Below the pieces are notes generated by a model that ran no database searches, was not told where the DNA came from, and saw only the letters and a list, made by a program, of their open reading frames with translations. A stretch of 53,753 nucleotides of DNA, filler included, from Jimgerdemannia flammicorona (taxonomy: Eukaryota), in NCBI GenBank assembly GCA_003990765.1. It is 3 parts of 3 records of this genome, joined end to end, with 100 filler letters (N's around TTAATTAATTAA, not from the genome) between each part and the next. Parts side by side here need not be neighbours in the genome. Positions count along the whole stretch, not along the records: positions 17,955 to 35,806 come from RBNJ01002384.1; 2 more parts are not named here. One strand, 5' to 3'. Of the stretch, positions 8,450 through 44,486 are shown piece after piece (positions within the stretch are counted from its first letter, which is position 1; every line of letters starts with the position of its first letter). The translations under genes were made by a program, and so were the position numbers.

Positions 8450-8450
8450 T

Positions 8451-15460: not shown

Positions 15461-15470
15461 CTTCTACACC

Positions 15471-15982
15471 ATGAGCCAAAGAATTGATCAGCACCTCCAA
15501 ACATTGGTCCTCAGCTCCTTCCAAGCCCTACCAGTTCCTCTACCCCAATTCGGCCAAGCTAATGGAAGCCCCCTTCAGAGGATCCAAGCTCATCAAGAAA
15601 ATCTCACCTTGGCCAGATGCCTACTACAAGTCCATCAACTGCAGACCTATTATGCAATCAGTAAACAATTGCAGAATCTCCCAGCCCCAGAGCAGACCTA
15701 CATCAGGAATACCACAGGTCTGACCAGAAGAGACACTACTGCTGCAGACAGACTATACACTATTTACAAATAAAATGTCACAGCCCTGATATAGGCACAA
15801 TTCTCCCTGAATGATATTCAAGGAATGAACTCTGTTACCTATTTGAGCTCATCAACTCTGTTGAAATCCTATTCCCTGAAGAAGAAGAGCCCATAGAATG
15901 GAGTGACCCTAGTATAGATAATGAAGATGATGGAACAGGTATAGATACAGAAGCAGCCTATACTTATTGAGATGATGACTGA
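15471..15982 (+). pseudogene. Accessory ORF3 between integrase and PPT, unknown function
   Basis: MSQRIDQHLQ...QLQTYYAISKQL...AADRLYTIYK with an acidic tail. Resembles the ORFs in the LTRs at 28848-29804 and 36708-37472. Confidence 0.6.
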
Positions 15983-16021
15983 AGAATAGTCTGGGACAGA
16001 CTACCCTTCAGTGGGGGCTGA

Positions 16022-17230
16022 TGTGACAAACCAAAATGTATCACCTGAATTATACCTTAACCAGATAACATGAACACACAGCATAGTAACTAGCAACCAT
16101 TACTGCAGAAAACTATATAAATAGCCAGATATACCAGAAAGAGTCTGTTTATCTGTACAGACTCTATACACTGTACAGACTCTGTATACTATATAGGTCT
16201 TGTATACCATACAGACTCTGTACACCTGCCATAAGTAGCAGATCTATAGTTAGCCACATAGTAACCAGATAGCAACCAACTTGTATAAATTACTCCAGAG
16301 ACAAGAGTGAATAAACCTCAGTCTGAAATTGAAGCAAAAGATAAGTCTGCCTACCACACTTCGAGAGGAACTCTACAGCCACTGTTAGGAGATTGTGCCC
16401 ACTCCAGTCCACTTTCCAATACAAAGAACAAGTCTGTTTTGAAGAGAAACCCTTAGTTCACTTGCTAGATAAGCCTGAAGAATCCCAGTTTGCCACCAAG
16501 TTTAAGGAAGAACTTCGCCGCCATTTCCCAGCTATCCACCATATCCCCAGAAGAGCCTGCCTTTCTTGCCACAAGTCAGTCTTTCTGATGCAACTTCACA
16601 GTAGAGCCAGTCTACAATGTAACCCTACATAAATGAAGCCAGTCTTTGATGTAACTTACCAAGAATCCAAGTTATTTCCCAGAAAATCTGCAACATCTAA
16701 GTTATTTGAATTATCCATGCTATCTGAATAAGTATTCCCAGTTGAAGCCGATTTAGAAGAATCTACATCATCCAAGTTATCTATATCATCCGAGTTATTC
16801 GTTATTCCCAGTGAGCCCAAGTTATTAAGTTATCTATTGCCAGCATTATTCCCAATAAGGCAAATCTACATGATACAATTCCTAGTGAGCCAAATCAAGT
16901 TATCTGCCAAAATTATCAGAATGTCCTGCATAAGGAACCCATTTGTGCTACACAGAGATTGAAATGCAGAAATTGCATAAGGAGAACTACTAAATTGCCA
17001 GACCATCATACTATATAAATTCTGCCATTCCCAGTTGACCCAAGAAGGAAACCCATTCACACATAAATCACCACTACACCCAGAGAACCATCCCAATAAG
17101 GAAATCACTTGCAGATATCCAGCTTTGACTATTATACCACTAAACACCAAGGACCTCAGAAATCTTAGAACATTTTGTTGCTTTTTGACAAAGTAACTGA
17201 GGGCTCAAGCCAAACTACATCAACCCTCAA
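16022..17230 (+). repeat. 3' LTR of Ty3 A, last ~40 bp missing
   Basis: PPT AGTGGGGGCTGA then TGTGACAAACC. The match to the 5' LTR stops at CAACCCTCAA. Confidence 0.9.
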
Positions 17231-17957: not shown

Positions 17958-20900
17958 TTTTTTTTTTTTTTAAAAGTCACTTGAACTCCTTTATTCCACT
18001 AGTCTATATTAATTAAACTACACATTTATCTTACTAACTACCTATTCCACACTATAAGTATGAAATAAACCTAACAGATCCTATCAACCCACCCCAATTT
18101 TCCACTGCACCCCACTCTCACCTAGTACCAAATAACCCTGACTCCCCAATACAATGTCTTGTACCTTCTTTACTGCCCCCAACTCCTGCTGCCTCCCCTG
18201 GTACTACCAACCCTGTACTACCTCTCTCATAAGCCAGCACCATCACTCCACCAGGTCCCCAATTCCCACCCAACATTCACCTTCAAAGACCCATCACCAG
18301 TATGCTGCCATTAAGACCCACACACCCAAGATCTGCCCAACACCTCCCCAAATGTCCCCAACCTCTCCCACCAGTCTCCTCTGGGTAACTACACTGACAG
18401 AATCTCCTGGCCTCCTTCTATCAGAACCCCAATATTCCTCCAACATCTGCCAATAATTCTCTACTCCTGGGTAGGCCTCTATGATATACTCCAGGGTCTG
18501 AACTACTTCTCTAGAGATTTTGAAACACCATTCACAATCTCTGCATCCATTATCCACTATCTATCCCATCTGATAGTTCAATATTACATTACTTCTCAGA
18601 AACTGCCACCAAACTACTCAATATCTAGGAGGTACTACCTTATTCAAAGTAGCCACCCATCTCCAAATTCAACCCCATTCCCACATCTTGCCAATGTCAG
18701 CTGTCTGCCATCCTACTGGCCACTGCTCAAGAGGGCCTGATCTGGTCCATTCCATAGCCTCCACCAGAGAATAGTCCTTCAGCTCCTTCCCTCTTACCCT
18801 GAGTAGTCTAAGTTGCTACCATCACTGCTTGGGGTCAGCCCTCTCCCCTATTGCCTCTATCTCCAGCCATGTTAGTCCTATTATAAGCCAGGTCTCAACA
18901 ATGTTCCACCAGAACCCTTTGAACTGTATCCTCCCACCAATCCAACTTGAAGTAGCCCTCACAAATCCTTCCTTTCCACACTCTGGAGGCAGAATCTGAT
19001 CTCCCAATTGTCTATTGCCAATCTGCCCCAGCTTTCTTCCTCTAACTCTACTAATCGGTGACCCCACCAGCTCCTAAGTGCCTTCAACCTTTGCCTAAAG
19101 TCTACCAACCCCAAACCTCTATCAGTAATCAGTAGCACCAATACTTCTCATCCAATCTGTGGCTGTCTACTCCTCCAGAGCCATCCTTCAATAGTCTTTT
19201 TGAGCTGCTGCACTACCTACCTATGGAAATCTAAGTGGTAACCCAGATACCACAACTTCAGCAGCCAGTACACATTCAGGACTACCACTCTCCCCACCAG
19301 AGAGAAGTTTCGACCAGCCCAGCCTGTCAGCATACCTTCCCATTTCTGTACCATTGAACTCCACTACTCTCTTGGCAAAACCATCCCAAACACTGAAAAC
19401 CATATCTCTAAGTACCATACTGCCTCTCCTGTAGGCACTACTCAGCCAAACCCTGCTATCCCTAAGCCTGTACCAATCTCTAAGGTTTCATACTTTCCCT
19501 AATTCAACTTTGCACCTACCAACTCCTCATACTGTTCTATTCCTTCTCTTAAAATGTCCACATCTGCCACACTGCCTAGCCCCACCACCATGTCATCTGT
19601 AAAGGCTCCTAGCTTCCAAATGACCTCACTCATTCGCAATTCATTCAGCTGTCCTCTTAGCCAGGCCAATACCAGTTCCAGCAAGAGAATGTAAAGAAGT
19701 GGAGAAAGAGGATCATCTTGCAGAACCCCTCTTCCTAAGGCAAACTCTGGACTACTCCAGCCATTCATCAGCACTGCCCCTCAACAGCCTCGCATCAGTC
19801 CCATCATTCTTCCAACTTCTCCAAGATCAAACCCTACTTTCAGGAGTATCACCTCTAGATAATGTCACTGCACCCTATTATATGCCTTTTCCTGATCTAA
19901 GAAAACTATCCTCCCATTGACCTGCTGACTTCTACAGCCTTCTAAGATATTTTGCACCCAGACAGTACTGTCTCTGATCTGCTGACCCTTTACAAAGCCC
20001 CTCTACTCCTCCTCTATCAGTCTTCCAATCCACTGCTGCAATCTTCCTGCCAGGATTTTGGAGACTAGCTTCCTATCCACATTCAACTGCATGATTGGCC
20101 ACCGGTTATACCACTCCCTCCTATCACCTTTCTTCTCATACAGCAGAGACACCAGTCCTAAGCTTCCATTTCCAATCCACCATCCTTCTTCCAGCACATA
20201 ATTAACTATTTCAACAAGCCAAGCTCCAAATTCCACCTGAAACTCCTTCCAAAACTCCCAAAGGAGTCCATTCTCATCTGGTGATAAACCACCAGGTACT
20301 TTCTGCAGAACCTCCAACACCTTCTCCAAAGATACTCTGTCTAATACTAAAGCCCCTATCTCTGGCAGTGGCACTACTGGCCAGTCACATACAAGAGATA
20401 TCTCAGCAACATCCTCTACCCCAGTACCTCCTCTCCCATCATCATCACTCCAGAGGGTCCACCATTGTCCAGAAACCTCCTCCAACATATCCATGACACT
20501 GGTAACCTCAACACCATCTTCTTGTAATACTGAAGATCAGCTGTGTTGAACTTTTCTTACCTTTAAGATACCAGATAAGTATTTCATCAGTTGCTCACCC
20601 TCTTCTAGTCACCTAGCCCTCAGGCATGCCAGGAGCCCATCTATAACTCTATCCTCAGCCTCCCTCAAAGCTAACTATAAGTCAACTACCTCTCTAGCAA
20701 GCTGATGCTTCTTCTCTACTACTAGTGAACCATCCTCCAATACCTTCAGTTATCACTACAATCCTCTTTTGACTCCTCTTTCCTTGTCCTTTTGCTCCTT
20801 TCCCACCACCTCTCCAGTGTCTTGCCAATATGCACCTACAAGGTGTTTAAACTTATTCTACCAATCAGCAATAGACAGACCACCAGCCACCCATTGCTCA

Positions 20901-21616
20901 ACTTCCTGCCTGGCCAAGTATACAAATTGCTCCTATTCCACCGGGCACTGAAGTAAGGCTACATTAAGGTGCTAGCACCCACCTCTTCCATGAATAGCCT
21001 GGATCTTCTACACACCTCAACTCCCCAATAGTCTAACCATGGGCACCACTATACCCCAACTGTGTCAAAAACATTACCCCAATATTTAGCTACCAGTATC
21101 CAATCAATCCACATTCCAACCATCCCATTGTCTATCAAATATTACCTAGTAAAGGGTCTTGACTCATCTCCTACCCTCAATTATACACCATCCACCAATC
21201 CCATGCCCTTTTCCACCTGAAGCCACTGAGACAGCCCTAGAGAAACTGTTACACTAGCTCCACCATCAGACCAATCCAGCACACAGTTGCTTATCATATT
21301 GAAATCATTCCCCAGAATGTCTAACCCTAGAGCTACCCAATTCCCCCAAGCCAGCCACTCCTCCACCCATTGCTTTCACTCTCTGCCAACTGCTGGCAGA
21401 TACACAGAGCCCACCAAGAGTCTATCTCCTTGTCCTCTCTTCAGCCTTTCCCATACCAGATGATCACCAAATCTTTCCACATCAACTATCTCCCTCTTTC
21501 CAACCCCAACAAGAATACCAACTTGCTTACTCCAGCCAGTATCTCCAAACTATTCCTTACTCCATGACTCATAGTCCTCCTTGCCATAGGTCCAAATATT
21601 CTGAAGAAATACCACA
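17958..21616 (-). mobile_element. L1/Tx1-like LINE copy 1 (decayed ORF2: APE, RT, zinc finger)
   Basis: Poly(T) at 17958-17971. GVLQDDPLSPLL, AFTDD, RWPIMQLNVDRK and ILGNDFN motifs. Cut inside the endonuclease by the next poly(T). Confidence 0.9.
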
Positions 21617-24600
21617 TTTTTTTTTTTTTTTTTTTTTTATAGTCACTTGGACTCCTTTATTACCCAGTAGTCTAATACAACAATAATCCTATCCAACAGC
21701 TACTATATATCCAAGGTACAAAGCAGGGCCTATCAGCCCACACCTTCTCTCTACTACACCACTCTGTCATCTAGCACTAGGTAATTATAACTCCTCTGCA
21801 CAATGTCCTGTACCTTTCTCATGGCTCCTAACTGGTGCCTCTTCTCCTGAAACCACCACCCTTGCACCACTTCCAGAAGTAACCATCTCTACTGCTCCAT
21901 CAATTCACCAATTCCCATCCAGAGAATACCCATCACCAGTGCACTGCCATCAGGACCCAGATGCTAAGAATATGACCCAAGCCCCCCCCACACATCTCTG
22001 ATCTCTCCCACTAGTCTCCATTTGATCACTGGCCCAGAGGTGCCCCCTGGTTGCCCACCTTTATGACCCCAATATCCATCCAATACCTGCCAATATCCTT
22101 CAACCCCTGGACATGCCACTAATATATGTTCTAGTGTCTGCACCATACCACCATCTACCTCACAACATCATTCACACTCTCTGATACCTTCTGCATCCAT
22201 CTATTTTGTCCTGTACCCCAACATTACATTTCTCCTCAAGAATCTCCACTATACTATTCAGAACTTAGGTGGAACTATCTTGAGCAAGGTATCCCCCCAT
22301 TGCCATATCTGACCCCACTCTCAATCTTCACCAAACCCAGCCTTCTGTCAACCTACTGGCCATCTCTCCAGTGGACCTGTTCTGATCCATTCCATTGCAC
22401 CAGACAGAGAGTATTCTGGCAACTGGTGGCCACTAATATGAAGGTCTCCTAGGTGTCACCATTTCTGCTCTGGGTCTTCCTCATCACCTGGCTCTGAGCT
22501 AGTAAGCCCCATTGCCAACCAGACCTCTACAATACCCTACCAGAACCCCTTATACCACAATCTGCTGACTCTATCCACCTGAAGCAGCCCCCATATATCC
22601 TTCTTAGCCTCACCCCAGGGACAGAACCTGACCTCCCAATTGTCCATGGCCAGTCTGCCCCAACCATTGATACCTAATTCTACAAATCAACACCCCCACC
22701 ATCCTCAAAGCACCTTTAACTACCACCAAAAGTCCACCAACCCCAAACCACCATCCAATGTCCACACTACTACTGTCTCCTAACTAATCTGTGGTCACCT
22801 TCCTTGCCATAGCCATCCTTCCACCACCTTCTTCAAGTGCTTTATCACCCAATCTGGGAAGTCCAAGGGGTACCCAAGATACTACAGCTTAGGCAACCAG
22901 TATACATTCAGTACTACAACTCTTCCAACTAAGAAGAAGTCCCTTCCTGACCATCCTGTCAGAGCACTCACCCACTTCTATATCATACCACACCACCACT
23001 CCTTTGGCAACACCATTCCCTAAACTGAAAACCAGATACCTAGATATTGGACTGCCTCTCTTATACCAACTATTCATTCAAACTGTCTATTTTCTCCAAG
23101 CCCAGTCCTAAGTTCCATGGTCTCACACTTGCCTCAATTCAGTTTCACTCCTGCCAGTCTCTCATATTGTCCAACCCCTTCTTGCAGACTTTCAATATCC
23201 TCCATACAGCCCAACCCAATCACCATATCATCTGCAAAGGCCCTCAACTTCTAGACCACCTCTTCTATCTACAATCTCATCAGCCTCCCCTTCAGCCACA
23301 CCAACAAAGGCTCCAAGGATAAGATATAGAGCAGGGATGAGAGCAGATCCCTCTGTGGTACACCTCTCCCCAAGGTAAACTCTGGGCCACACCACCCATT
23401 CATCAGTACAGCTGCTCAACATCCTCATATCAGACCTATCAAGCTTCTAGCCTCCACCATACTGAACCCTACTTTCTGTAGTACTGCCTCCAAGTAGTTC
23501 TACCTTACTCTATCATATGCCTTTTCTTAATCTAGAAAGACCATCCGCCCATCTATTTGTTGACTTCTGCAGTCTTCCAGAACATTTGGCACCTAGGCTG
23601 TACTATCCCGAATCTGCCTCCCCTTAATAAAACCTCACTGGTCTTCACCCACTAATTGGCCCATCCACCACTGCATTCTTTCCACCAAAATTTTGGACAC
23701 CAACTTCCTATCTACATTCAGTAACATGATCAGCTGCCAGTTTATAGATATGTCTGTCTCCCTTCTCTTTATATAATAAGGAGACCAACCCTAAGGAGCT
23801 ATTACTGATCCAACAACCTTCTCTCAAAACAAAGTTCACCATCTCAACTAGCTATTCACCAAACTCAGCTCAGAATTCCCTCCAGAACTCCGAAGGCAGG
23901 CCATCCTCCCCAGGTGATGAGCCAGTCTGTACATTCCTCAATACCTCCAATACCTCCTTAAGGACCACTGTGCCCATTACTGTTCTACCCATCTCAGGCA
24001 CCACTACTACCAGCCAGCTGTCAACCAAGTTGTCACCATTCCTCTGTAGGACCTCACTCTCTGCTTACCCACCCTCATCCTGCTACAAAGTATGCTACTG
24101 GCCAGATATCTCCTCAAGTATACCAGTAATGTCAGTAACCTCAATCCCATCCTCCCACAAGACTGATGCTCAGCTGTACTGCACTCTCCTGGCTTTCAAG
24201 ATTCCTGATAAATATTTAGTGGGCTGCTCTCTTTCCTCCAAGCAACTTTCCCACAATCTCGCCAGTAGACTATCTATCACTCTATCTTCAGCTGCCCTCA
24301 AATCTAACTTCAGCTCAGCCACCTCTTTGGTCAGCTGGCAGCATCACTCTCCTGATAATTTTACTCCTTCCATTAGCCTCAGCCACTATTGGAGACCCCG
24401 CTCTACTCTCCTCTCTCTATCTCTCTGCTCTCTCCTAGCCACCTCACCAATATCATGCCAGTAAGCACCTGCCAAATGTTTAAATTTATCCCACCACTGC
24501 CCTATCAGCTGTTCACTGTTCTTCCACCACAATACATCCTGCCTTGCAATTATCACAAACTGTTCCCACCCTGCCTGCCTTTTGAGTAGAGCCACATTAA

Positions 24601-25821
24601 GTCTCCAGCAACCTCCACCTCTACCTATTGCCTGAAATCTCCCTTGCACCTTGACTCCCCAGTGATCTGACCAAAGATACCACTATACTGCTACTGAATC
24701 CAGTATATTACCCCAACATTCTACAACCAGAATCCAATCAATTCTTGTTTCAACCAAGTCCTCACCAACTGAATGCCATCTAGTAAAGGGCCCTGGTCTC
24801 TCCCTCTGATGTTGCCATACCCCATCAACTAAACCCATATCCTGCTCAACCTGAAGCCATCACAAGAGTCCAGCTGATACTGCTACATCCACTCCACCAT
24901 CAGATCTATCTAGTGTCATATCATGCACTATATTGAAATTCTCCCCCAAAATGTCCAGCCCAATCTCTTCTTAGCCTTCCCAAGCCAGCCAGCCCTCTAC
25001 CCATTGGTTTTGCTCTCTGCCAACTGCTAGTAAGTAAGCAGAGCCTACAGTAAGTCCATTGCCAGCTCCTTTTTTTAGTCTCCTCCAAACCAATCAATTA
25101 CCATAGACTGTAGTCTCCACCAAATCACCTTTTCCTAAACCAATCAAGATCCCCACCTGCTCATTCCACTCTGCACTGCCATATCATTCCTTACTCCATT
25201 CCATATAATCCTACTCACCATATTCTCAAATATCCTAAAGAAATACTACATCATACCTCCTGTTCTTTAGCCAATAAAATAGCCACCTCCACTTCACTCC
25301 ATCATGTAGACCATTCACATTTAGTGATGATATATGCAGATTGTTCACCATTATTGAAAAGAATATTTAAAGCTCCACCAGAATTGCCACTACCTTCTCA
25401 GCCTGACCATGGATGATTTCCTTTCATTTTTCACAGATAGCTCTCTAGATATGGGAACCATTTATACTACCACAGAAGATATCAACCCTCTCAGATGCTA
25501 CTCTCTAGATATCAGCCATCTGGGCCTCATCTACCTCATGTCCTTCATCATCCAGAAGTGCTGCCACAATTGTCATCACCAGTTTTGACCTCTGCAATAC
25601 AATATTGAGGAATTCTTCTCAAGCCTCCTGAGATCTATTAAACACATCCACTTCCTTGATGTCCTCCTCTATCAGTTCTTCGAGCACTGCCTGATACCAA
25701 TCATCTGCTGTAATCACCAGAGATCCAGGGGTGACAGGCCTTGGAGTCCTACTCAGCTCCTATAGCATATCTCTGTCTACTAATACATCAGAGACTACAT
25801 CTATCAGATCATCTTCCTCAG
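21617..25821 (-). mobile_element. L1/Tx1-like LINE copy 2 (ORF2 and 3' part of ORF1)
   Basis: Poly(T) at 21617-21638. ORF2 starts MVNNLHISSLNVNGL at 25351. Interrupted in ORF1 by the hAT element. Confidence 0.9.
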
Positions 25822-26035: not shown

Positions 26036-28030
26036 TTGGTGACATCACCCTTTCTTTTGTTCATTTCACTCTTGTATTTTTTTTTCTGCCACACTTTGAT
26101 AACATCACCCTTTCCTTTGTTCCCTCTCTTTTCTTTGTTCTTTTTCTTTGTTCTTTCCTGCTGCATCATGAGCAAACAAAACAGCAGCCCTTAATTCATA
26201 CATTGGTTCAGTCTACTCATTTTTCACCCTGCAATGATCATCAAAAGAGGGAGTATTCGAGGTGGAAACATACTCTCTGCTGACAATGTTAGATTCTTTC
26301 TCATATAGACAGCACACAAGCTGCTCATCGAGAGCCAAAGGGGTGATGGTGGTGGCAGTGACGATGGCAATGGTGGGGATGAGGGAGAATTTCAGCAACA
26401 ACTTATGGCAGCCCTTTGGACCTCGGAATTCACAGACCTCACAGCTATGTATGCGGCAGCCTTTTTGGAGCAGCCAATAGTATATGTAGGTTGCTCACTC
26501 GGCCGCCACTTGTTTACTTGTGTTTATTTAAACTTTCCCAGTATGACCCAATTTACCTCATACTTTTCTTAGGGTCAACAGCTCTACAGCGAGATCTGCC
26601 AATTTTATTTGCAACATTTGGTCAAGATGAAGAAAGGCTGATAGATGTTGCGGGGCATGTCTTTGGTGGCTGAGCTGTTGAGTCAATGCATTGTATGGTG
26701 GAGGTCTCAAAAGGAATAGAAGCAAGCCTTCATGAGTAATTCTTGTGCAACTTGTGCAACTTGTCAGCATGCAACTTGTCAGTATGCAGCTCACTCACTC
26801 ATGCTCTTTTTCTGAAATACCCATCTCTGTGTTTTATTTAATTTCATTTTTACATGGTCTCCCCCTAAAAAACACCCACACCCACATACAACTCACATAC
26901 AATCCATCCACATGCAACCCACCTGCACACAACCTGCCCACATACAACCTACCTGCAACTCGCCCACACACAACCCACCCACATGCAATCTGTCTGCATA
27001 CTTATCTTGGTCCCTCAGATCAGGGCTCAGTTCTATTGGAAAGGAGAGTTCAAAGTTACCCAAGTTCAACCACATCCAGCATCTGATCAAATAGAGAAAT
27101 TTGAGGGCAAGATGTTCAGCATGAGCAGTACCAGCATTATTATCAAGGCTTGGGGGTCTACATTTGAATCAGAGCCAATCGTACTTGACCAAGGGGTCCA
27201 TTGGCCAGCAGGAGTAACCAAAGATGAAGAGAGCCATATCTTTATTAACGAACACAGAGAGGTGGTTGCAATGGTGGTAAGGAACCTCTACGGCGAAGAG
27301 CTTTATTGCCACATCAACGAGATTTGCAAGAATTGTGTCAAATACTGGGTGGCAGGAAAGAGGGGGTAAAAAAAGCAAGGAGGGGGGGTTTGGATGGGAA
27401 TTGGATATACTGTAACACTGGCGAAGGGTTGGTTCCGGAGTTCTGAAATCCCCCACACTCGTCTCCCTTTTTTTTTAACCCCTTCTCAGATAAATCACAC
27501 TCTTTGCCAACATACTCTTTTTTGATACAATTCCAGAGATGCACAAGATTCTGTACCCCTACCAGAACTTTAGAAGTACTGTTGAAGAGCAAACTGCATG
27601 TGAGCATGACATGGTCTGTGCAGTGATGGCGGCTATGATCTGGGGTTCTTTGAGCAGATTGGTAGAGCATATGGCAGACCAGCTTGGTGGTGATCTTAGT
27701 ATGGCTGTACATACATTCTTAGCATAATTTAGCATGCCATATGAGGTGAGGAGCTCCGCTTTTTTGGAGTGCTGCAGCCCGGGGGGTTTCTGTGGCCTGG
27801 GGGGTTTCTGCCCCCCTGAATGCAAAATTGACTGACTGGTTGCCATTCGTTTTGGCAGGTTTCCAAGCTGGGGCTCCCGGGGCTGGACCAAGGGCAGGCA
27901 TCCACCAGCACAGCCTGGCAGTATGAGGTTCTGGGCCAAGGATTCACCAACCATATGCTTGCATCACATCAGGATATGTTGGGCACAACCTTTCTCTGCC
28001 CACACACACAGACAACAATGTTACTCTGGT

Positions 28031-30059
28031 TGTAAGAGGGTTGCTTTTTAGGGTAACCATTATGTAGTTCTGGAAAGGTTTTCTGGATATTCTGGATGTT
28101 CTGGAAGACCGTTTTCTTATGGTTAAGATCAATTTCGTATGGAGTACGTCCTCTACACTTATTGATTTCAAGATCGGGTTGACGTCTCAACTAAAGTCCT
28201 TTTTTGGACTAGTTCTGGATATTCAGGATTTTCTGTATTTCAGGAAGTTCAAGAAACTAAGACCAACTTAGTTAAATTGGCATATCGCTGCAGACAATAC
28301 CCAATTAGGAAATTTTGTGATGGAGTTAGGAGTAGGACCTAACAGGGAGCGGATTTACTTAAGAGTGGTTTGTGGGTTATGGAATAGGTTTATTTGCTAT
28401 TCATGATATTGCTATACTAGGAGTATTTGTGTGAAGGGGTATCATGGGGAAGTATTCAGGAATGTTCTTGTGTGTTCAAGTCTGAGATTCTGAGGTCTGG
28501 GGGAGGGGGTATTTATACTAGTGAGGGGCTATCTGGACTATGCTAGATATGGATGTAGCACTAAGTGCCTTGCTGAGTCGGAATGCAGTCACGTAGTACA
28601 AGTGTGATCTGGCATGTCAAGAGATCGTCTGACTGCTGTATCAGTTCACAGTCATGTCATACAATGCTAATCTAACTATACTATGACTGCTAGGCTATTT
28701 ATGGGTTTAGGTGCTATCTGGGTAGTCTTCAATGACATCACCATCGATTGCATTATCTCTGATGAAGTAGTTGTCTAGGAAGAGTGGTTCATGGATTACT
28801 TCTCCTTGTTCGCTGAGATAGTAATACATTGGGACTTCGTCTCTGTCTCACAGGATAGCATCGTCTGTCTCGTAGGCTGGATAAGGTGTTGGTGGACAAA
28901 GGATGGGTGTATTGTCTTCGCTTTTGTCAGATTCACTATCTGCGTACCTTCTATAGGTTACAGCACTATGAGTTGCAGGATTGTAGTAAGCTGGCAGCTG
29001 TGATTCATGTCGCTCATACTCAGGTGGTGGAGTGGTTGGTTCAATCTCGAGGGTTGTCTGGAGGTACAGGTTGTGTTCTCCAGTCTCTTCATTGTAGTTG
29101 AAGTAATCAGGGGTGAACACAGGTTGGTATTCGTGCCAGTGGTCATTGTCCCAATAAGTCTCGTATGCAGTTATGAACTGTTGTAAGTTCATCGGCAAGG
29201 TTGGCGGAGTGATCAAGGTTGGCAGAGATTCTTGGCTAGAGGTCATGTCAGCATCAGAGGGATCATTGTCTTCTGCTTCGTCTTCATCGAAGTGGATTAT
29301 GTCATAGACATCCTTCATGGCATATCCAACTTGAGGCATTTGCAGGATGTGATCATTGGGGTGTGGAAAGGTTCTGTCTGTGGTTTCGACATACTCGAGG
29401 TACTTGTGGTTGAGTTCTTGTATCATCTCGTCGATTTGGCCATAGGACAGAGTAGCAACCATTTCGCTGGTAGTAACTCGGAGGCGGGGAATAAAGGTGC
29501 TATACTCATAAAAGAGTTCTCGATGTTTGCGGGCGATGAGCTTCTGGTGTTGAGACATCTGGGTGATGTCTGTATTGTTGTGGTGTTTGACCATATCTTC
29601 CAGGAGGTGGCTGATCTGATAGTAGCTTGAGATTTGTCCAATTCGGTGGGCCTCGCTAAGCATGTTCAGGGCATTCCATCAGGCTTCCATGAAGTAGAGG
29701 GGTGCCAGGCTATGGATATTCATGAGGGGCAGAGGGGGTGTAGCTCAGTTGACAATGGAATTCCAAATGTCAGCATGGATGTGGTTGTAGATCTCAGTGG
29801 TCATGTTTGTGTGTTTAGAAGTTGTGGTTGTTGTTTGTTTTGATTCTCTGATTCGACGCATCTTGGTGCTTGGTATATATGCATTTGGTCCTGATTGGTA
29901 AGATTCCATTTGTATAAATCTTGTGTTCCGTGACTTCGTATTGACTCAGCTTTGTGCCTGTGACTTCGGTTTGACTCAGCTTCGTGATCAAGCAGGTGAT
30001 TTTCAGATTTGTTCAGAGGTCGCATGTAATTTCGGTGGCTTGGAGGTTGTGCACTTATA
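28031..30059 (-). mobile_element. Ty3-type solo LTR (2029 bp) containing an ORF
   Basis: TGTAAG...CTTATA (decayed CTTACA). 5-bp TSD CTGGT at 28026-28030 and 30060-30064. Minus-strand TATAAATA near 28510 and AATAAA near 28390. Confidence 0.88.
28848..29804 (-). pseudogene. LTR-embedded accessory ORF, unknown function
   Basis: A 271-aa open frame extends upstream to ATG 29804 through two TGA codons that plausibly derive from CGA. Acidic, Pro/Tyr-rich C-terminus. Confidence 0.75.
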
Positions 30060-30539
30060 CTGGTAATATTTTACATCCCAGAAAGGAAGGGCCCAATCTG
30101 GGAGGATAGCGGCAGAGTCTGGTATGACCTCACCTATGGTTTCAGGGTCCCGTTTGCGGCCAACACAGTCATCCTATTCCAACCACATGACCACCACAGC
30201 ACTGTCGCCTTCGAGGAGAGCTCAGACATGACAGTCGTTGCACTCACAATGGATGACAGGCTCATCAAGGCCTGGGACCAGTGGGTGGAGCAGTTTTTGT
30301 GAGGGTTAGGCAATCTTTCGTGAGGGTTAGACAGCCATTTTGTGCAGGTTGGGTAGTCTTACATGGTGGGGTTGGGCCGGGCGCCTCTTATGTAGCACTA
30401 GTTTAGCTATTATGCAGGGCCCTACTGGCCGGGGTGCCTGTGAGACCTGAACTGGCAACTTCAACTACTGGAAATGCCCTCTGACTGCCAGAAGCACCCT
30501 CCAACCACCAGAAGCACTCTCCACCCCGGACTCCTAGGT

Positions 30540-31030
30540 GGCTTAGGGCTGCCCCTATGCTGCTGGTAGAGGGCTGCAAATTTTGCACACTCCCTCCACC
30601 TGCCCCGCCCATCCTGGACACTTGTGGCTTGGGGCAGCCCCTTACTGCCGGCAGAGGGCTGCAAATTTTTGTGCACTCCCTCTGCTGACCTCATACCTGC
30701 CAACTGACCCTGCCCACTGACCCGGGCACTGACAGCTTGGGGCTGCCCCTTGCTGCTGGTGAAGGGCCGCAAATTTTGCATGCTCCCTCCACTTACCCCC
30801 CCAATCTGGACACTTGTGGCTTGGGGCTGCCCCTTGCTGCCGGTGGAGGGCTGCAAATTTTGTGTGCTCCCTCCACTGACCCGCCCACTGCCTACTGCCC
30901 ACTGACCCACTAACTCACCCACCGACCCACCCACCAACCTGGGCACTAGCAGCTTAGGGCTGCCCCTTGCTGCTGGCTGAGGGCTGCAAATATTGCATAC
31001 TCCCTCCACTGCCGCCGCCAACTCTGCCCC
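30540..31030. repeat. GC-rich minisatellite inside the hAT
   Basis: About five units with core GGGCTGCCCCTTGCTGCYGGTGGAGGGCTGCAAATTTTG...CTCCCTCCAC. Confidence 0.85.
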
Positions 31031-31144
31031 ACTTTGGCCACAAACTCCAGGCCAAGTCCTCAGGTTTTTTTTTCCTTTTTATTATTTTGAAAGGTATTAA
31101 ATATTCCACAAGGCCAACCAACTTATCTATGGACCCACTGAATT

Positions 31145-33690
31145 TTAGTGGCCCGAGCCCCACCAAGACTTCAGACACATACATGCCTAGATTGTCTCAG
31201 CATTCAGTACACACCTCTTTGAGGCAACGAGGTCCACCCCACCTGAGAACACCTGCTCGATGGGAGTGCTGGAGGCAGGAATTGCCAGGTAGTCCCAAGC
31301 TATACCACACAGGCTGGGGAAGTCCATTTGATACAGCTGCATGCCCTGGTGGGTAGAGTGGTGGTTAGATTGGTGGGTTCAATTGGCCCAACACCCGCCT
31401 GACAACCCACCTTCCACCAGTTGAGCACCTCCATGCCCTCCAGCAGGACCATGCAGTTGCTGGCAAGATAAATGGTAAGTTCATCTATTGATGGCAGCTC
31501 TTCCACTGATGGCTCCCTCTTCCTCTTTCTGCTAAAGTAAATGTGGGACAGAAGGGATCTCTCAGCATATTCATCCAGACTTTGGCCGGAACCTTGCAGC
31601 AGTGTATAGTTTTTCCGGTACACTTCAATTACAGCCTGCTTGGTTCTCTCAATGAAGTACTGCTCCCAGCCCTGATCTTTATAGTATTGTAGCTTTAAGC
31701 ATGGGTCCAGTACTGTTCGAAGAAAAGGAGAGTGAGTTTTTGTGGGGTTTCCTCTGTTTTGGAAGGGGCAATGGCCATATGCTGACATCAACATACCTGT
31801 ACTGATTGAGTATACAGCGGTATCTGTTTGGGAGTAGTATTTTCTAAGCTTGCTTAGAGCAACCTCCACAGCATCTCTCTGATCCAGGCTTAACCGTAAA
31901 TCACCGCAACCCTCCAGCCTCTCCTCGAGCTTATCCTCTAGCCAGTCAATCAGAAGGTTGTATATCGATATTGCAGAGCTTATTGTCGGGGTCGTTTGTT
32001 TGACTATATCCTTCATACAATCGTCGAAACACTGGCAGTTATATGTGGTGAGGTGTTGTATTGTGCGGAGGCAGACAAAACGAGTATAGAGCCAGGGCAA
32101 CCACTACTTACTTCCAAAACTCTGACAACATTCCTAAGTATGTCCCACTTACTTTCACCTAGAGCCTTGGCCCATATTTCCTTGTCGGCAGCCATCATTG
32201 AATCTATTGGCTTTTTTTTTTTTTTTTTTTTTAAAAATAAATCTTCCATTATCCGAAACAGTTGCTTCAGCCGACTGAAGAAAAAAAGGATGCATATCAC
32301 AGCAAACTCCAGCGCATGCTGGATTATTGCAAATGATGAGTTCTAATGTGTACAGATGTCCAATATAAGCTCTTTCAGGGCTAAACTGATTGCCCTACAC
32401 TGTGCAGCGATTTTGTCTCATCATTGTGGGGATGATTGGACTGACACAATCAGTTTGCTTAGCTTGGAAATTATACTCAGGGCCCCTCCTCTCTCAGATG
32501 TTTTGTCTATGTGCGTAAGATAGTTCTGAACAGCGAGGTTCAGTACATGGGCCTGGCATCGCACATGGCAGCTTTCTGCACTGAAGGCCATGTTTTCCTG
32601 TTTGAGGCTGGCCGCTAAAACTTGGAAAAATATTGAGTTATTTGTGGCATTGTCTATCATAATGGCCAAAATCTGTACTTGAAATATTTGGTTGACAAAT
32701 TTATGTGAAAATAAGTAACCAATAAAAATCTGGTTTGGTTTAGGACCTCTCTCAAAATACTGACCTGATGGCAAGCCCCCCTTTTTTACCTTAGTGGTGA
32801 TCCCAAGCTCCCGGATACAACTAATAAAAGTATCTGTGATATTGTCTCCAGAATGAGGGCCAGCAAGTTTGACGAAGTCAAGGGTGAGAGATTTAAGCTA
32901 CCAATCGAGGTCAATCTAATGACCAGTAATGCCCAGAAATGAAATTGCATTAGGGGATGTCCATGTGTCGATCATAAATGAAATTTTGCCTGCCGAATTC
33001 TGCTTATTGAATGTGAGGTTAAATTGGTGAGCTCTTTTATATAATTCAGCTTGCAAAGGTCATGGTGCTGCCCTTATTTTACCTGAAGTGTCTGGTGAAG
33101 ATTGTTATACTCCTTCCTATAGGCCTCCAGGACATCTTTGCGAATAGTATTGGCACTTGGCAAATATATATCATGCTTGAGGAGGCCAAAGATGCTATGC
33201 AATTGATCACTCTCGATAGTTGTGAATGGCTGGTCTGTGCACACAATCTAGTGAATGAGCTGATTTCGAAATTCTGCTAAAGAGTATGGCTAAATATTTT
33301 TGATTAAATGGCATTATTGGTACAGAAATGGTCAAGCAATCAGATAAACATACCCACTACAGCTTGGATGTTGATTTTATTTGTCTCTGTGTTCTTTTTG
33401 ATTTTGTCAGAGTGTTTGTCTTTTATGTGTTGATTCATGTTCGAAGTTGTACCCCCAAGCATTTTGAACTTCTGGCTGGTGCAGTTCATGGGGGTGGATG
33501 AAACAATATCATGTATGTGTCAAAACAAAGTGTCAATAGGTGTATCTTAATTTTTTACCTGCATGGAAGGTGTGGAACTATCAGGGATATTTGACTTGAA
33601 GCATCATCGGTACTATGAACTGTTGAAGACTGATCTGTTGACATGTGTGTTTGCATGTATGTGTGTTGTGTTGTGGACACATCTGGCATA
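31145..33690 (-). pseudogene. Multi-exon hAT transposase (BED finger, DDE, dimerisation domain)
   Basis: TTSNMNQHIKDKH, DTWTSPN, IDNATNN, RCQAHVLNLAVQ, VLDP, LNWWK, DYLAIPASSTPIEQVFS. Several GT-AG introns and a few stops. Confidence 0.92.
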
Positions 33691-33699
33691 TGAGTCATG

Positions 33700-34105
33700 T
33701 GGAGGATTTGGATTGGAGGATTCAGTTGAAGGATTCGGATGAGGATTCGGATTGAAGGATTCAAATTGGAGGATTCAAATTGGAGGATTCAAATTGGAGG
33801 ATTCGAATTGGAGGATTTGAATTGAGTGATTCAGATTGAGTGATTCAAATTGAGTGATTCGAATTGAGTGATTTGGATTGGGGTGGTTCAGATGGGTGAT
33901 TCAGATGGATGATTCAGATGGGGCGATTCAGATTGAGTGATTTGGATTGAGTGATTCGGATTGGAGTGGTTCAGATAGGTGATTCGGATGGGGCAATTTG
34001 GATGGGGTGATTCAGATTAAATCTGAGTTGATTCGGATGGCTTCAGATTTGAGATTCGAATCAAACCATCATGTGATGAATTGAATCTGGATTTGATTTG
34101 AATTG
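33700..34105. repeat. hAT right subterminal repeat array
   Basis: Tandem GATTCRRATTGRRK-like units of 12-14 bp. Confidence 0.9.
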
Positions 34106-34614: not shown

Positions 34615-35792
34615 TTTTTTTTTTTTTTTATAGTCACTTGGACTCCTTTATTATCCAATAGCCTAATATAACAATGAATCTATCTAATAGCTATTATATA
34701 TCCAAGGCACAGAGCAGGGCCTATCAGCCCACACCTTCTCTCTACCATACCCCTCCATCATCTAGTACTAGGAGACTGTGACCCCTCTGCACAATGTCCT
34801 GTACCTTTCTCATGGCTTCTAACTGATGCCTCTTTCCCTGAAACCACTACCCTTGCACCACTTCCAAAAGCAACCATCTCCACTGCTCCACCCAATTCAC
34901 CAATTCTCATCTAGGGATCCTTCTCGAACACCCATCTCCAGTTCACCACCATCAGGACCCAGATATCAAGAATACAGCCCAAGCCTCCCCACATATCTCC
35001 AATCTCTCCAACCAGTTGCCATTTGATCACTGGCCCAGTGGCACCCTCTGGTCACCCACCTTCATGACCCCAATATCTCTCCAATACCTGCCAATACCCT
35101 TCAACTCCTGGACATGCCACCAATACATGTTCTGGTGTCTGCACCATACTACCATCTATCTTATAACACCACTCACACTCTCTTACACCTTCTGCATCCA
35201 TCCATCCTGTCTGGTACCCCAACATTACATTCCTCCTCAAGAATCTTCACCATACTACTCAGAACTTAGATAGAACTACCTTGAGCAAGATGTCCCCCCA
35301 TCACCATATCTGGCCTCACTCCCAATCTTCACCAAACCCAGCCTTCTGCCAACCACCTCTCCAGTGGGCCTGTTCTGATCTATTCCATTGCTCCAGACAG
35401 AGAGTATTCTGCCAACTGGTGGCCACTAATATAAAGATCTCCTAGACACTACCATTTCTGCTCCAGGTCTTCCTTAGTATCTGGCTCTGAACCCATAAGT
35501 CCCATAGCCAGCCAGGCCTCTACAATATCCCACCAGAACCCCTTATACTGTAATCTACTGACTCTACTCACCCAAAGTAGACCCCACATATCCTTTCTAG
35601 CCTCACCATAGGGGCAGAACCTAACCTCCCAATTGTCCATGGCCAGTCTGCCCTAACCATCAATATCTAATTCCACCAATCAACATCTCCACCTGCCTCA
35701 AAGCACCTTCAACTATCTTTAAAAGTCCACCAACCCCAAACTACCATTCAATATCTACATCACTACTGTCTCTCAACTAATCTGTGGTCACC
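34615..35792 (-). mobile_element. L1/Tx1-like LINE copy 3, 3' end
   Basis: Poly(T) at 34615-34629, then close similarity to 21639-22800. Confidence 0.9.
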
Positions 35793-35806
35793 TTTTTTTT
35801 TTTTTT

Positions 35807-36113: not shown

Positions 36114-36260
36114 ATAAGGCATATTAAATAAGCTAAAATTTATTATATTTAGATATATTTGATTGAGTTATTGAATTTTGAAAAATTAGATTTAAATTGG
36201 ACTTTAAATCAAATTAACTCTTAATTTAATTTAATTAATTCTGAGTACTACTATAGATAT

Positions 36261-37789
36261 TGTCATGTAGTGGTTGCTGAGTCCTTCAAATATACCAGAT
36301 TCTTTTCAAGGTATATCTCTTAGACTAACTCAAGTTTGTTATAAGCAAGTCCTTATTAGAGTGCCTTCCTAAGGTCTTATAGTTCTCAAACTTCTTATCT
36401 TTAAACTATCTTGTTATCTCTTAGATTGCTTGTAAGGAAGTGTGTGTATTGCACTGAGAGGAACTGACTTTATTTCAGAGGAAATAAGAGGGGTATTTAT
36501 ACAAAATATAATTCAATGGTTGCTAAGATATAAAGCTAAATATAAATTCCAATAACTAAAATAAAATGCCAGAACAGGAAAAACTACTAAGTTCTAGAGT
36601 TGGTACTGATGGTTGTACAGATTCAGAATGCTGGTATAATTCAGTATTACATCAGAATACTAGTGCTGGCATTATTCAGTGTAACTAAGAGACTTAGAGC
36701 AGAATGTTCAGGACCATGGAGCTTCATCATCAGAGGTCAGGATGTCTTTAAAGGAGATGAGGTCTGCAAATTTATCATCATCACATAGGTCATATATTCC
36801 ATATACTTTGCATACTTTATATATTTTATTGTACATCTCATGTATGTTGTGCAGGATGATGTCATCGCCAATGACATCATCATATTCAGGAGGCCTGGGG
36901 CTCTCCAATCTATGAGGTTCTCTTCTATAAAATAGGGAACAAATGTGGGGTCTTGGAGAGATCTAATATAGATACTTGGGCCTTAGAATACTGAGATCAA
37001 TCCTTACAGGAATTGGTCTAGGTTGTCCTAGAGGATGGGATGCCAGAAGTCTTCTACTTCATCACTATTAAGAGTGATAGTGGATTGGGCTTCTGTAGCC
37101 ACCCTGGCTTCTAATGTATTGATATGGTGAGATGACAGATCTCTGAAGTCTGAGACTCTAACATACTCTAAGTTGGGGATCAACTATAGTGCATGCCTGA
37201 AGATCTGATGGATCCTCTTAGCTATCCTTGTTTTACATATATCTATGAGTGATATCTTGTAGCTCTTGAGGGCTGGCCTGTGGAAACTCCTGATAAAGGA
37301 GGTTTTCTATTTCATACTCCTGCCATATTTGGAGACATTCAGTAGCAATGGTGATCCTTGTTTCTATTTTACAGTGGTAGAGGATATAATGATAAGGATC
37401 ACCAGTACCCAGGTTGATACTAGGAGTCCTTCTTGAGTGGGTCCTTATGACTCTTCTGATGTCTTGAGACATCCTTTTTTCAACTGAGGTGTCTTGGTGG
37501 TTTCTTGACCTTGAGGTTTGGCAAGCAGCAGGCATTTTGTGGTAAGTCTTTGAGCTATTTTGGGATTGGTGGGTCTTGTTGGTTACTGTTATTGTAGGTT
37601 ACTGTTATTGTAGTTCCTTGATCCTTCTTTTATATTCCTCAAGATACTCATACTATGGTCACAATGACTCACAGTTGGTCATTATTGCTCATCTCATATG
37701 CTGTATGATCTTCTTGTACTTTGATCTAGTGGCTTGTGAGAAAAGGCTGTCTCCTGTGCTGATGTCATTATTCTGGGGTCACTATTATA
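36261..37789 (-). repeat. 3' LTR of Ty3 B (1529 bp)
   Basis: Direct repeat of 43487-44486 plus 50272-50831. Confidence 0.9.
36708..37472 (-). pseudogene. LTR-embedded accessory ORF of Ty3 B
   Basis: MSQDIRRVI...QIWQEYEIENLL...RIAKRIHQIFRH...IPNL with an acidic tail. Also present in the 5' LTR. Confidence 0.65.
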
Positions 37790-38149
37790 TCTTTCTCCTG
37801 AATAAGGATCTTCTTGAGTGTCCTTATTTATTAGTCCAATCCTGAAAAATTTGCTGATCTCATAACCTCTGGTAAGGGGTCGAAAAGTGATATTTATGGG
37901 CTGGTGTCTTCCCTTTGTATTTTGGTATGATGGTGAAGAGTTGCTCTCTTCATATAGAGCAAGGGTCTGATTCTGATCTTGACCAATCAGTTGATAGTTC
38001 AAACTCCTCTGGCTTTGAAAGTCTCATAGATGAGTAGTTGCTGGTGTCATATCTCTTAGAGAATGGTCCAGATAGATAGCCTGCTAATTATGGGACATAC
38101 TGTTATGATTTACAGACTAGAACCTTATGGGTGGTCATTATGTTTTACT

Positions 38150-41100
38150 TCTCTTGTATAGGTTTGTGATACTTCTTGAGTCTGTTCCTATGTACTATGG
38201 TAGGCAGTATAGTCCCTGAGATTTTTCTAAGCCAGAAGGTAGTTCCCTTGATATCTTGCACATAGAAGGGTTCTTCCTATTTGGGCTCCAGTTTTTGCAA
38301 CCATGAGGCTTCTACCATATTTTGATACAGTAGGATCTTTTCTCTGATTTGGATGGGTTCTAGGGTCTTGTAATTCTTTTCTGCATTCTTCCTTATCAGT
38401 ACTTGTAACTTGATAATGTAATCTTCAGCCTTCTTTCTGATTTGGTATAGTCTCTGGATTTCTGCATCAATCCATCTCCAAGTTAGGTCTAGATTTGTGA
38501 CTGAGGTTCTATCAGAATCTTCTTCTCTGAAGAGCAGTTCTCTTGGGGTAAAGTGTGTGCTCTGTGACTGTATGTCTCATAGGACAGAGAGGGTAGTTGG
38601 GAGGTAGTTATCCCAATTCTCATATGTCTCTGAGATTTTTGCCAGGATGTTCTTGAGGGTCTTATTGGTTCTCTCTATCTGTCTATTTCCTTAAGGGTGG
38701 TATGCAGTGGTCTTGATGTGCTGGATCTTGTATTTCTAATATATTATCTCATGGAATCCATTGACAAATTCTGTACCATAGTCTGTTGTGATTTGCTTTA
38801 GTGTCTTATAGCAGCAAATGATTTCTCAGTACAGGAAGTCAGCTATAGAGAGGGTATTGGCTTCTTATAATGCTCCTGCTTCTATCTATTTGGTAAAGAG
38901 GTCTACAATAACTATAATATAGTAGTTTCCTAATAGTATTACTGATAGTGGCCCAATGATATCTATTGCAATATGGTAGAAGGGGATAGGCTCAATTCTT
39001 GATAATCCAGATACCTAGTCATGCTGATCTTGTTTCTGTTTTTGGCACTTGTCACACTCTTTGACAAATTGGTACAGGTCTTCTTCCATTTTGGGCTACC
39101 ACATGGTTCTTCTTGCCTTATCATATATGTTGGTTCCTTTTAAGTATCCTTGCTCATGTACTTTCTTCATTATTTGATACTTCTTGTGTTTGAGTATTAC
39201 TAGCTTTCCTTCTTTTCTAAGTATAGTATTGTCTAGTTCAAACTGTTTCCAAGTCCAGTTGATGATAGTAATTGTCCAGAGTTTGAGGTGGTTGGGCATC
39301 TTCTACTGCCCAAGATAGCTAATTAATCCATAGTATAACTCCTTATTCATGTTGAATAGTCTTGATGGGGGTATTTTGGGGTGTCCTTGAGAGTGCATCA
39401 GTATTGGTATTGGTTCTTCCTGAGTGGTGCATAACAGTACAGTCATACTCTTGCAGCCTGTAGATCTATCTGACATATATTTCTTTGGGGTTCAGAGTAT
39501 AGAATAGCCAGGTAAGAGCAGAATTATCTGTTTGAATGGTGAAGTATTTCCCAGCTAGGTAGTAGTAGAACTTGTCTACTGCCCAAACTACTGCTAAGCA
39601 TTTAAGCTTACATAACTCATAGTTTTGTTCTGCTCCATAGATACCTCAGCTTGCATAGGAGATGACATATTTATATCCATCTTTCTTCTGAGCTAGAACT
39701 GTTCCAAGTCCTATAACACTTGCATTTGTCTGCAGGATGAATTCTAGGTTCCAATCTGGTCTTCTGAGAATAGATACTTAGGTCAATCTGGTCTTAAGTT
39801 CATTGAAGGTTTCTTGGTATTCCTTGGTCCATTTGAATTTGGTTTCCTTCTTCAGTAGCTCATAGATAGGTGCTATAATGTTGGAGTATCCTTTGATGAA
39901 TCTTCTGCAGTAGCTGGCCAGTCCAAGGAAGGCATGGACTTCTGTAGTTCTTCTGGGTCTCAGATAGGCTACAATAGCCTCAATCTTTATGGAGTCTGTG
40001 TAGATTTCTGTCTGATTGATGAGGTGTTCTAGATAGGTGATTTTCTGAGCTGCAAACTTGCATTTCTTAGGCTTGATATAGAGGCCATACTCCTTGAGCT
40101 TCTTGAGGGCTAGCTGTATGTGATTGACATGTTCTTGTGTAGTATTGCTGAAGATGATCATATCATCAACATAGATAAAGAGCTATTTTCCAATCTTGTT
40201 GCTGAAGACTCTGTTCATCATTTGCTAAAAACTTACTAGGGCATTGCATATTCCAAATGACATTTGCAGGTAGATATAGGTAGTGTCAGGTGTGACAAAG
40301 GCTGATTTCTTACTGGTATCTTGAGTGAGACTAATCTGATGGAAGCCTGAGAACAGATCCAAGGTAGTGTAGTATTTGGCTTCACTTCCAAGGGTGGTAA
40401 GGATTTCTTGAATATTTGACAAGGGCTGCCTATCCTTCTTGATGATTGCATTGAGCTTTCTGTAGTCAATACAGAGTCTTGGTGCAAACTCTCTAGACTT
40501 GCTTCCTTTCTTTGAGGCAAGGACAATGGGTGAAGCCCAGAGACTGATAGCTTGCTTGATGATTCCAGCTTCTTTCATTTCCTTGAGTTCTGCTCACAGC
40601 CATTCTCTGTAGACAGGTGGTATGAGTCTGGCTTTCTGGTAGATGGGCTTAGTATCACCAGTATCAACTTTGTAGTAGTACTTGGGTTCTTGATTGTGGA
40701 TATCCCTGAAGTCTGTAGTAAGTATTCCTTCGTTCTGATGCAGGATCTTGAGAAGTTATTCTTCCAGGGGAAAGTTTTCTCCAATAGTATATGTATACTT
40801 GTTCTGGTCCTTGTCTTTCTTGTGCTCAAGTTCAGTAATCTTGATGTGGCATAGGCTCCTCTTCTAGTAGATCTAAAGCCTTGTTCTCCTCTCTTGGTCT
40901 TGATGAATTTGATGGCTTTAGTGATCTTGGGTTTCTTGATTTTGTAGATCAGCATCTGGCCAATCCTGTCATACTTCTTGACTTCAAATGGAGTGGTGGG
41001 GTTGTGATTCCTAACTATAAGAAAGATCTTGTCAGTGTAATTAGGGTCAATTACTCCTTCTTCAACTGAGATTTCACTTTTGGCTAGACTGCTCCTGGTC

Positions 41101-43430: not shown

Positions 43431-43486
43431 TTTTTAGCTTGAAAGTGAGGGATTCGTCTTGAATCACCAGTCAATGAGTACCAAGT

Positions 43487-44486
43487 TGTTACGTAGTAGT
43501 CACTGAGTTCTTCAAATATGCCAGATTCTCTTCAAGATATATCTCTTAGACTAACTCAAGTTTGTTATAAGCAAGTTCTTATTGGAGTACCTTCCCAAGG
43601 TCTTATAGTCCTCAAACTTCTTATCTTTAAACTATCTTGTTATCTCTTAGATTGCTTGCAAGAAAGTGTGTGTATTGCACTGAGAGGAACTAACTTTATT
43701 TCAGAGGAAATAAGAGAGGTATTTATACAAAATATAATTCAATGGTTGCTAAGATATAAAGCTAAATATAAATTCCAATAACTAAAATAAAATGCCAGGA
43801 CAGGAAAAACTACTAAGTTCTAGGGTCAGTACTGATGGTTGTATAGGTTCAGGATGCTGGTATAATTTGGTGTCACATCAGAATACCAGTGCTGACATTA
43901 TTTAGTGTTACATCAGAATGCTGGTACTGACATTATTCTGTATAACTAAGAAACTTAGAGCAGAATGTTCAGGACCATGGAGGCTTCATCATTAGAGGTC
44001 AGGATGTCTTTGAGGGAGATGAGGTCCATGAATTCATCATCATCACATAGGTTGTATATTTCATATACTTCACATGCTTTATGTGCTTCATCACATGTCT
44101 CATATATGTCATATGGGATAATGTCATCACTGATGATGTCATCATGTTTGGTGGTAGGAAGGAGGCCTGGGGCTCTCCAGTCTATGAGGTTCTCTTCCAC
44201 AAAATAGGAAACAAATGTGAGGTCTTAGAGAGGTCTAACCTGGATGCTTGGGCCTTGGAATACTGAGATCAATCCTTACAGGAATTGGTCTGAGTTGTCC
44301 TGGAGGATGGGATGTCAGAAGTCTTTTACTTTATTACTATTGAGAGTGATAGTAGACTAGGCTTCTGTAGCCACCCTGGCTTTTAGTATATTAATATAGC
44401 AGGATGACAGATCTCTGAAGTCTGAGACTCTAATATACTCTAAGTTGGGGATTGACCATGGTGCATGCCTGAAGATCTGATAGATC
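43487..44486 (-). repeat. 5' LTR of Ty3 B, part 1
   Basis: Matches 36261-37214. Confidence 0.9.

Follow-up and report, generated by a model that had tools for sequence, protein, structure and literature searches.

The 53,753-nucleotide stretch of Jimgerdemannia flammicorona DNA analysed here (the window) probably holds a dead accessory protein gene, carried in the U3 region of a 2.03-kb LTR by a high-copy LTR retrotransposon family. The gene runs in the same sense as the LTR and lies wholly in U3; its frame is shaped as that of a protein gene, and the copy here is dead (Table 1). LTRs generally count as non-coding control sequence, which annotation pipelines mask, and a U3-borne protein gene would be a rare layout, which we know otherwise from a few retroviruses. 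A conserved gene in this position would double the gene dose per insertion, would leave gene copies in every solo LTR and would point to an accessory function in the struggle of retroelements with hosts by which they are methylated and mutated. The locus, though a dead copy, is of value in that it fixes both the LTR borders and the full extent of the gene.

Table 1 Features of the solo LTR, of the gene in its U3 region and of the adjoining host repeat (positions count along the window)
Feature	Position	Strand	Evidence or remark
Solo LTR, 2029 bp	28031..30059	minus	Depth step, joints, loose end, termini
TSD, upstream copy, ACCAG	30060..30064	minus	Single copy in empty-site contigs
TSD, downstream copy, ACCAG	28026..28030	minus	Single copy in empty-site contigs
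30-bp tandem repeat, 1.9 copies	29930..29986	minus	126-182 nt upstream of ATG; TGAGTCA in each copy
TATATA	29874..29879	minus	Starts 75 nt upstream of ATG; 70 nt between motif and ATG
Decayed 365-codon gene	28707..29804	minus	ATG at 29804, TAA at 28709-28707; relatives, periodicity, conservative replacements
Nonsense codon 20, TGA	29745..29747	minus	P0003 has Arg there
Nonsense codon 42, TGA	29679..29681	minus	P0003 has Arg there
Nonsense codon 319, TGA	28848..28850	minus	P0002 has Trp, then 46 more homologous codons
TATAAA, candidate LTR promoter, end of U3	28512..28517	minus	Single motif match
AATAAA, candidate poly(A) signal, R/U5 border region	28389..28394	minus	Single motif match
Decayed hAT transposase, host repeat upstream of insertion	31130..33700	minus	Pfam PF05699
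Tandem repeats following the hAT remnant	30521-31026		

The unit from 30059 to 28031 has the properties of a solo LTR. Contigs of four public sequencing runs (X1 to X4, of which X1 and X3 belong to one study and X2 to another) were placed on positions 26500-31500 at 80% likeness; all four runs contain part of these positions only (word shares 0.11-0.26), and the runs in which the sequence occurs are labelled soil metagenome. Summed contig depth was 4-20 times higher inside the unit than in its flanks. In X1 the summed depth per bin reached 809-2654 over 28003-30006 against 37-225 in the flanks, with a value of 263 in the boundary bin 30007-30173 that straddles the LTR end, and the step at the unit recurred in X2, X3 and X4. 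Seven contig rows from X1, X2 and X3 (two studies) jump from 28018 or 28021 to 30062, 30063 or 30081; the sides of these joints measure 21-67 letters (at least 31 in three of the seven rows, with sides under 31 in the other four), and the 6-10 letters between them rebuild the empty site predicted by removing 28031-30059 together with one ACCAG. On the plus strand of this empty site 4 of the 12 positions differ, all by transitions (C in the contigs, T in the window), and the remaining positions agree. Because the joints rebuild the predicted empty site, we place the borders of the 2029-bp unit at 30059 and 28031, and in X4 another copy has its loose end exactly at 28031, against unrelated DNA; no loose end at the 5' border of the LTR is among those listed. 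The unit had been taken for a 2-kb solo LTR in the earlier note on this DNA, and a discrete 2029-bp insertion with a 5-bp TSD and a matching empty site bears this out; the same TSD and empty site contradict a deleted internal fragment, the scenario that the note had set against its own reading. The solo LTR would have been left after recombination took out the internal part of an element.

The unit begins with TATAAG and ends with CTTACA on the minus strand, so that the 3' CA is present and the 5' TA is one G-to-A transition away from TG; its terminal inverted repeat matches at five of six positions and lacks only a G at the second base. Past the 3' end of the unit, two records of X2 and two of X3 have loose ends at 28029 that continue in LTR sense through a 3-nt spacer into TGGTAGCAG..., a sequence placed and built like a primer-binding site (15-27 letters, in metagenome contigs at 80% likeness). 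Because this primer-binding-like site borders the unit's end in other copies, the unit is also to be found as a 5' LTR. In the window, the gypsy element at 36.2-44.5 kb shows the matching layout after its own 5' LTR (...ACA, ACT, TGGTA). Elsewhere in the window the primer-binding motif has only one match, with two mismatches and at chance level, and the window contains neither tRNA genes nor a second copy of the unit.

Two other accounts of the unit deserve weighing against this evidence. It might not be an LTR at all but some other small element, mobile or non-autonomous (for instance a LARD-like remnant, or a gene-carrying insertion of no recognized class), whose CA end and 5-bp duplication are fortuitous, as would fit with the 5' end being TA instead of TG, with nothing in the window matching the unit and with neither paired LTRs, a polypurine tract nor an internal region turning up in the window or among the listed contig ends. 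We consider this distinctly unlikely because TGGTAGCAG... stands 3 nt past the same end in other copies from two runs of different studies, because the termini form an inverted repeat and TATAAA and AATAAA follow in U3-R-U5 order, and because the same change of TG to TA by G-to-A transition is described for a fungal LTR family under repeat-directed mutation (PMC10787394). Extra ORFs of LTR retrotransposons usually lie between pol and the 3' LTR (PMC7264820), which would suit an account in which the gene is the tail of an internal coding region (a post-integrase ORF3) running into the LTR, and the unit is the 3' fragment of an element. This is very improbable: the ATG at 29804 lies well inside the insertion, 255 nt from a 5' border at 30059 that is fixed by the TSD and the empty-site contigs, and the primer-binding-like site at the unit's other end in other copies argues that the whole unit is also a 5' LTR.

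Within this LTR the earlier note had described a protein-coding frame of 318 codons at 28848..29804. Its phase and its ATG start hold, the latter because P0003, one of two related database proteins, begins with the same residues, but the frame is not open: it runs on the minus strand with TGA at codons 20 and 42 inside it, and its end at 28848 is a third, premature TGA. The stop-to-stop open stretch spans only 28848-29678 on the minus strand, that is, 276 codons (271 from an ATG at 29663). Since P0003 has Arg at both positions, codons 20 and 42 are CGA to TGA changes at CpG. The placement of the gene inside U3 likewise stands in part, in that it has the sense of the LTR, lies upstream of the TATA box and bears the marks of a real protein gene, whereas the copy, with its three nonsense codons, is not intact.

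The gene has very few relatives. Among 1.84 billion representative proteins just two matches were found, P0003 and P0002, both of them fragments from contigs of about 1 kb, and word-indexed protein searches added no relative, returning P0002 alone from 119 candidates and P0003 alone from 29. P0003 (128 amino acids, from a 1180-bp JGI contig) is identical to the frame at 112 of 128 positions and has the same starting Met as the ATG at 29804. P0002 (247 amino acids, C-terminal; source, a 998-bp ENA contig) has the same residue as the frame at 165 of 246 positions and remains collinear with it past the third stop, 46 codons on, to the same C-terminus, with only two gaps, each of 2 codons. Run against the window, a profile of the three sequences also picks up the two pieces that flank the break in the frame. 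Searches of metagenome contigs with P0004 and alignment A1 gave 40 and 52 pattern matches, respectively, and no relative; genome contigs searched with A2 gave 115 pattern matches and no relative; and viral contigs searched with P0002, P0003, A2 and one DNA pattern gave no locus, one related stretch being reported without a locus. A family that is abundant in soil sequencing runs yet has two fragmentary protein relatives is effectively unstudied. A comparison with the post-integrase frame at 15411-15770, in the neighbouring gypsy element, gave no support for kinship (HMM E 0.084, hhalign probability 1.4%).

Several properties of the frame are those of a protein gene. Dinucleotide shuffling of the 2029-bp unit, repeated 2000 times, never produced an ORF of 276 codons or more, the longest shuffled ORF having 248 codons. 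Base composition differed strongly by codon position in the U3 frame (chi2 75.6, p 2.9e-14; 0 of 2000 shuffles as high) but not in three non-coding controls, namely the rest of the LTR and both flanks (p 0.14-0.53), and the coding controls of the window, the copia RT (4e-5) and the gypsy dUTPase (1e-4), gave a weaker signal than the U3 frame. The 80 replacements that separate the U3 frame from P0002 were conservative, with a mean BLOSUM62 score of +0.35 and 76% scoring at least 0, whereas neutral mutation of the window's own codons yielded means of -0.39 to -0.53; the observed mean was reached in 0 of 1000 neutral simulations under each of three transition/transversion models (0 of 3000 overall). 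A test on the number of stops was weak and not significant: 3.0-4.3 stops were expected neutrally against one seen (P(<=1) 74-177/1000), with the caveat that database proteins are pre-selected for being open. Neutral evolution of the frame, which would have spoken against the initial reading of it as a gene, is thus contradicted by codon periodicity and conservative replacements.

An alternative interpretation is that the frame is a by-product, either an ORF opened by base composition or a captured host gene fragment carried neutrally. The sense strand is indeed T-poor and A/C-rich (22% T, 16% G), which makes stops fewer, and the dead state of the window copy, the lack of any known domain, fold or wider family and the failure of the stop-count test to reject neutrality all go with such an origin. 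We nevertheless hold it to be unlikely, because dinucleotide shuffles that keep the composition never reach 276 codons, codon periodicity exceeds that of the window's own RT and dUTPase frames, neutral mutation gives far less conservative replacements than those seen against P0002, both indels against P0002 are whole codons and depth over the ORF in the soil runs is no lower than over the remainder of U3. That last observation, the match in depth between the ORF and the rest of U3, also makes the ORF a standing part of the family. In X1, depth over R-U5 (about 1900-2650) was roughly twice that over the gene (about 800-1340), and this contig depth suggests that subfamilies share R-U5 but differ in U3.

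The accessory gene is accompanied by candidate LTR signals. From its ATG, 255 nt inside the LTR from the 5' border, it extends to a stop 190 nt upstream of TATAAA, and TATAAA is followed 123 nt further on the sense strand by AATAAA, in the order U3-R-U5; that both motifs follow the frame on its own strand agrees with what had been noted at the outset. The 30-bp tandem repeat upstream of the ATG is a candidate enhancer, and its copy number differs among other LTR copies, as loose ends and insertions at 29957 indicate; TGAGTCA as such is not enriched in the window (11 found against 11.8 expected). TATATA, a single short motif match, may be the promoter of the gene itself.

The intact product would have 365 residues, a pI of 4.4 and a net charge of about -46, with 8% Tyr, 8% Pro, 17% Asp plus Glu and one Cys. 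It is without a hydrophobic segment, the maximum Kyte-Doolittle mean over 19 residues being 0.57-0.97. Pfam returned no family for any of the three family members at E up to 1, no relative was present among PDB sequences and the ESM Atlas gave no usable match. AlphaFold2 run on the three-row alignment reached a mean pLDDT of only 33.1, a value at which the model supports no fold; in its secondary-structure output, at that same confidence, helices cover residues 3-141 and little order follows. The product may be pictured as soluble and strongly acidic, with a helical N-terminal part of some 140 residues and a tail rich in Tyr, Pro, Asp and Glu that is probably disordered. Judging solely by position and composition, our best guess is that the product acts as a regulatory or adaptor factor specific to its family, for example an LTR activator or an antagonist of host silencing, and not as a structural protein or one of the membrane.

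In live elements the gene would sit in the 3' U3 portion of the element RNA. Its expression would go through a spliced or subgenomic RNA, or else start at its own promoter in the first 255 nt of the LTR, which would comprise the 30-bp tandem repeat and TATATA; its transcript would end at the AATAAA of the LTR. The earlier note had further proposed that solo LTRs spread the gene independently of gag-pol. This we do not uphold: being unable to move, a solo LTR cannot spread the gene and only leaves a decaying copy behind. We see only a slim chance that each LTR is a self-contained gene, with enhancer-like repeats and a TATA motif, the 365-codon frame and a poly(A) signal, so that even solo LTRs supply a trans-acting acidic factor for the whole family. 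Were this true, each insertion would deposit two copies, the factor might activate the family's LTRs or blunt methylation-based silencing by the host, and the gene would represent an undescribed class of retrotransposon 'public-good' genes that is abundant in soil eukaryotes.

Among known systems, MMTV sag shares the layout of a sense frame within U3 and upstream of the TATA box, and so present in both LTRs, the two frames measuring about 320-365 codons. Sag is a type II membrane glycoprotein, whereas the product described here has no membrane segment, and the null Pfam result for all three family members (E up to 1) gives no sequence relation between the two; moreover, MMTV is a vertebrate retrovirus, whereas the gene here belongs to a retrotransposon of a soil eukaryote. 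The nef gene of HIV/SIV and the bel/tas-bet genes of foamy viruses also encode regulatory or accessory proteins at the 3' end of the genomic RNA that reach into the LTR and are expressed from spliced RNAs or internal promoters. Their frames start in the internal region and overlap U3 only partly, in contrast to the start codon here, which is 255 nt inside the LTR, and there is no homology to them. In literature searches for LTR-encoded proteins, MMTV was the sole case returned with the U3-gene layout (PMC2191198).

The aORFs of LTR retrotransposons offer another comparison, since they too are lineage-restricted, fast-evolving, without an assigned function and without homologues outside their family (PMC7264820); examples are ORF0 of Retrosat2, which is internal and lies upstream of gag-pol (PMC3485330), and the extra ORFs of bdelloid rotifers (PMC5408684). 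Such aORFs sit in the internal region, whereas the U3 frame is confined to the repeat itself, with the 5' border set by the TSD on one side and the TATA box on the other. The review PMC7264820 phrases no ORF as being in, within or inside an LTR, and the LTRs of crapaud measure 339-443 bp and are without an ORF (PMC10787394). A search of full-text literature, covering journals other than subscription titles, found no protein gene borne by the LTR of a retrotransposon and returned only papers on MMTV and on foamy-virus miRNAs.

The LTR is inserted in an older repeat that adjoins the remnant of a hAT transposase, recognized on the minus strand, near 31160-31330, by its C-terminal dimerisation domain (Dimer_Tnp_hAT, PF05699; E 8e-09, score 35.6 bits, cutoff 21.4). 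The window is dense in transposons: a copia RT occupies 3-1304, and two gypsy elements, both decayed and bearing a dUTPase, span 7249-17230 and 36260-44486, with LTRs unrelated to the 2029-bp unit; the second of these is intact-looking in layout, though decayed, and dUTPase in fungal gypsy elements is already in print (PMC2864245). The ratio of observed to expected CpG is 0.02-0.25 in the old elements, 0.50 in the 2029-bp LTR and 1.15 in the copia piece, and CpG depletion together with the CGA-to-TGA lesions in the gene fits methylation-driven C-to-T decay.

The solo LTR, a 2,029-bp unit on the minus strand, lies within or immediately adjoins a host repeat that carries a decayed hAT-type transposase (see table), and contig depth shows that the host repeat, too, is present in multiple copies. 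The C-terminal dimerisation domain of the hAT transposase was located near 31160-31330. In the U5 of the solo LTR, two clusters of a 9-bp repeat (units TTCTGGATA/TTCTGGATT, read on the plus strand) form a possible protein-binding array; U5 was the most abundant portion of the unit in the soil runs, the public metagenome runs whose contigs were aligned to the solo LTR region.

Repeat features in the window, in order of position
Feature	Position	Strand	Details
Copia-type pol fragment	3-1988	+	RVT_2, E 6e-75
AT-rich 1-kb unit, two copies	3046-4073; 5064-6084		83% identical, 2 kb apart
First Ty3/gypsy element, decayed	7249-17230	+	paired LTRs about 1.16-1.2 kb
Frame between integrase and 3' LTR of first element	15411-15770	+	
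Two tandem 3.6-kb units	17958-25251		mutual identity 66%
9-bp repeat in solo LTR U5, two clusters	28081-28105; 28213-28240		2.8 and 3.1 copies
G/C-rich tandem repeats after hAT transposase	30521-31026		units roughly 90-190 bp, about 500 bp total
hAT-type transposase, decayed	31130-33700	-	reading split across three frames
Third copy of 3.6-kb unit	34615-35794		1.2 kb, at 84%
Second Ty3/gypsy element, decayed	36260-44486	-	paired LTRs about 0.96-1.0 kb

Both Ty3/gypsy elements have LTR pairs that are 85% identical and a dUTPase domain ahead of RT, and their CpG observed/expected ratios are just 0.08 (first) and 0.02 (second). Homology between the post-integrase frame of the first element and the LTR protein, the product of a decayed 365-codon frame in U3 of the solo LTR, was unsupported; the alignment to residues 22-71 was weak (HMM E 0.084; hhalign probability 1.4%). 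Adjoining the 3' LTR of the second element is a 580-bp stretch (37204-37787) that occurs again 13 kb away (50261-50829; 86% identity) and may be a piece of another nested element.

The 3.6-kb units and their third copy show extreme GC skew (about -0.45 to -0.53) and a CpG observed/expected ratio of 0.04; two ORFs tested in these units (20003-20536, minus; 23748-24464, plus) had no Pfam match. The AT-rich 1-kb copies are found inside a 21-26% GC stretch (3-7 kb) with a sharp border to DNA of ~45% GC. Unlike all other repeats in the window, the copia pol fragment has a CpG observed/expected ratio of 1.15; either the fragment is of very recent origin or it evades methylation.
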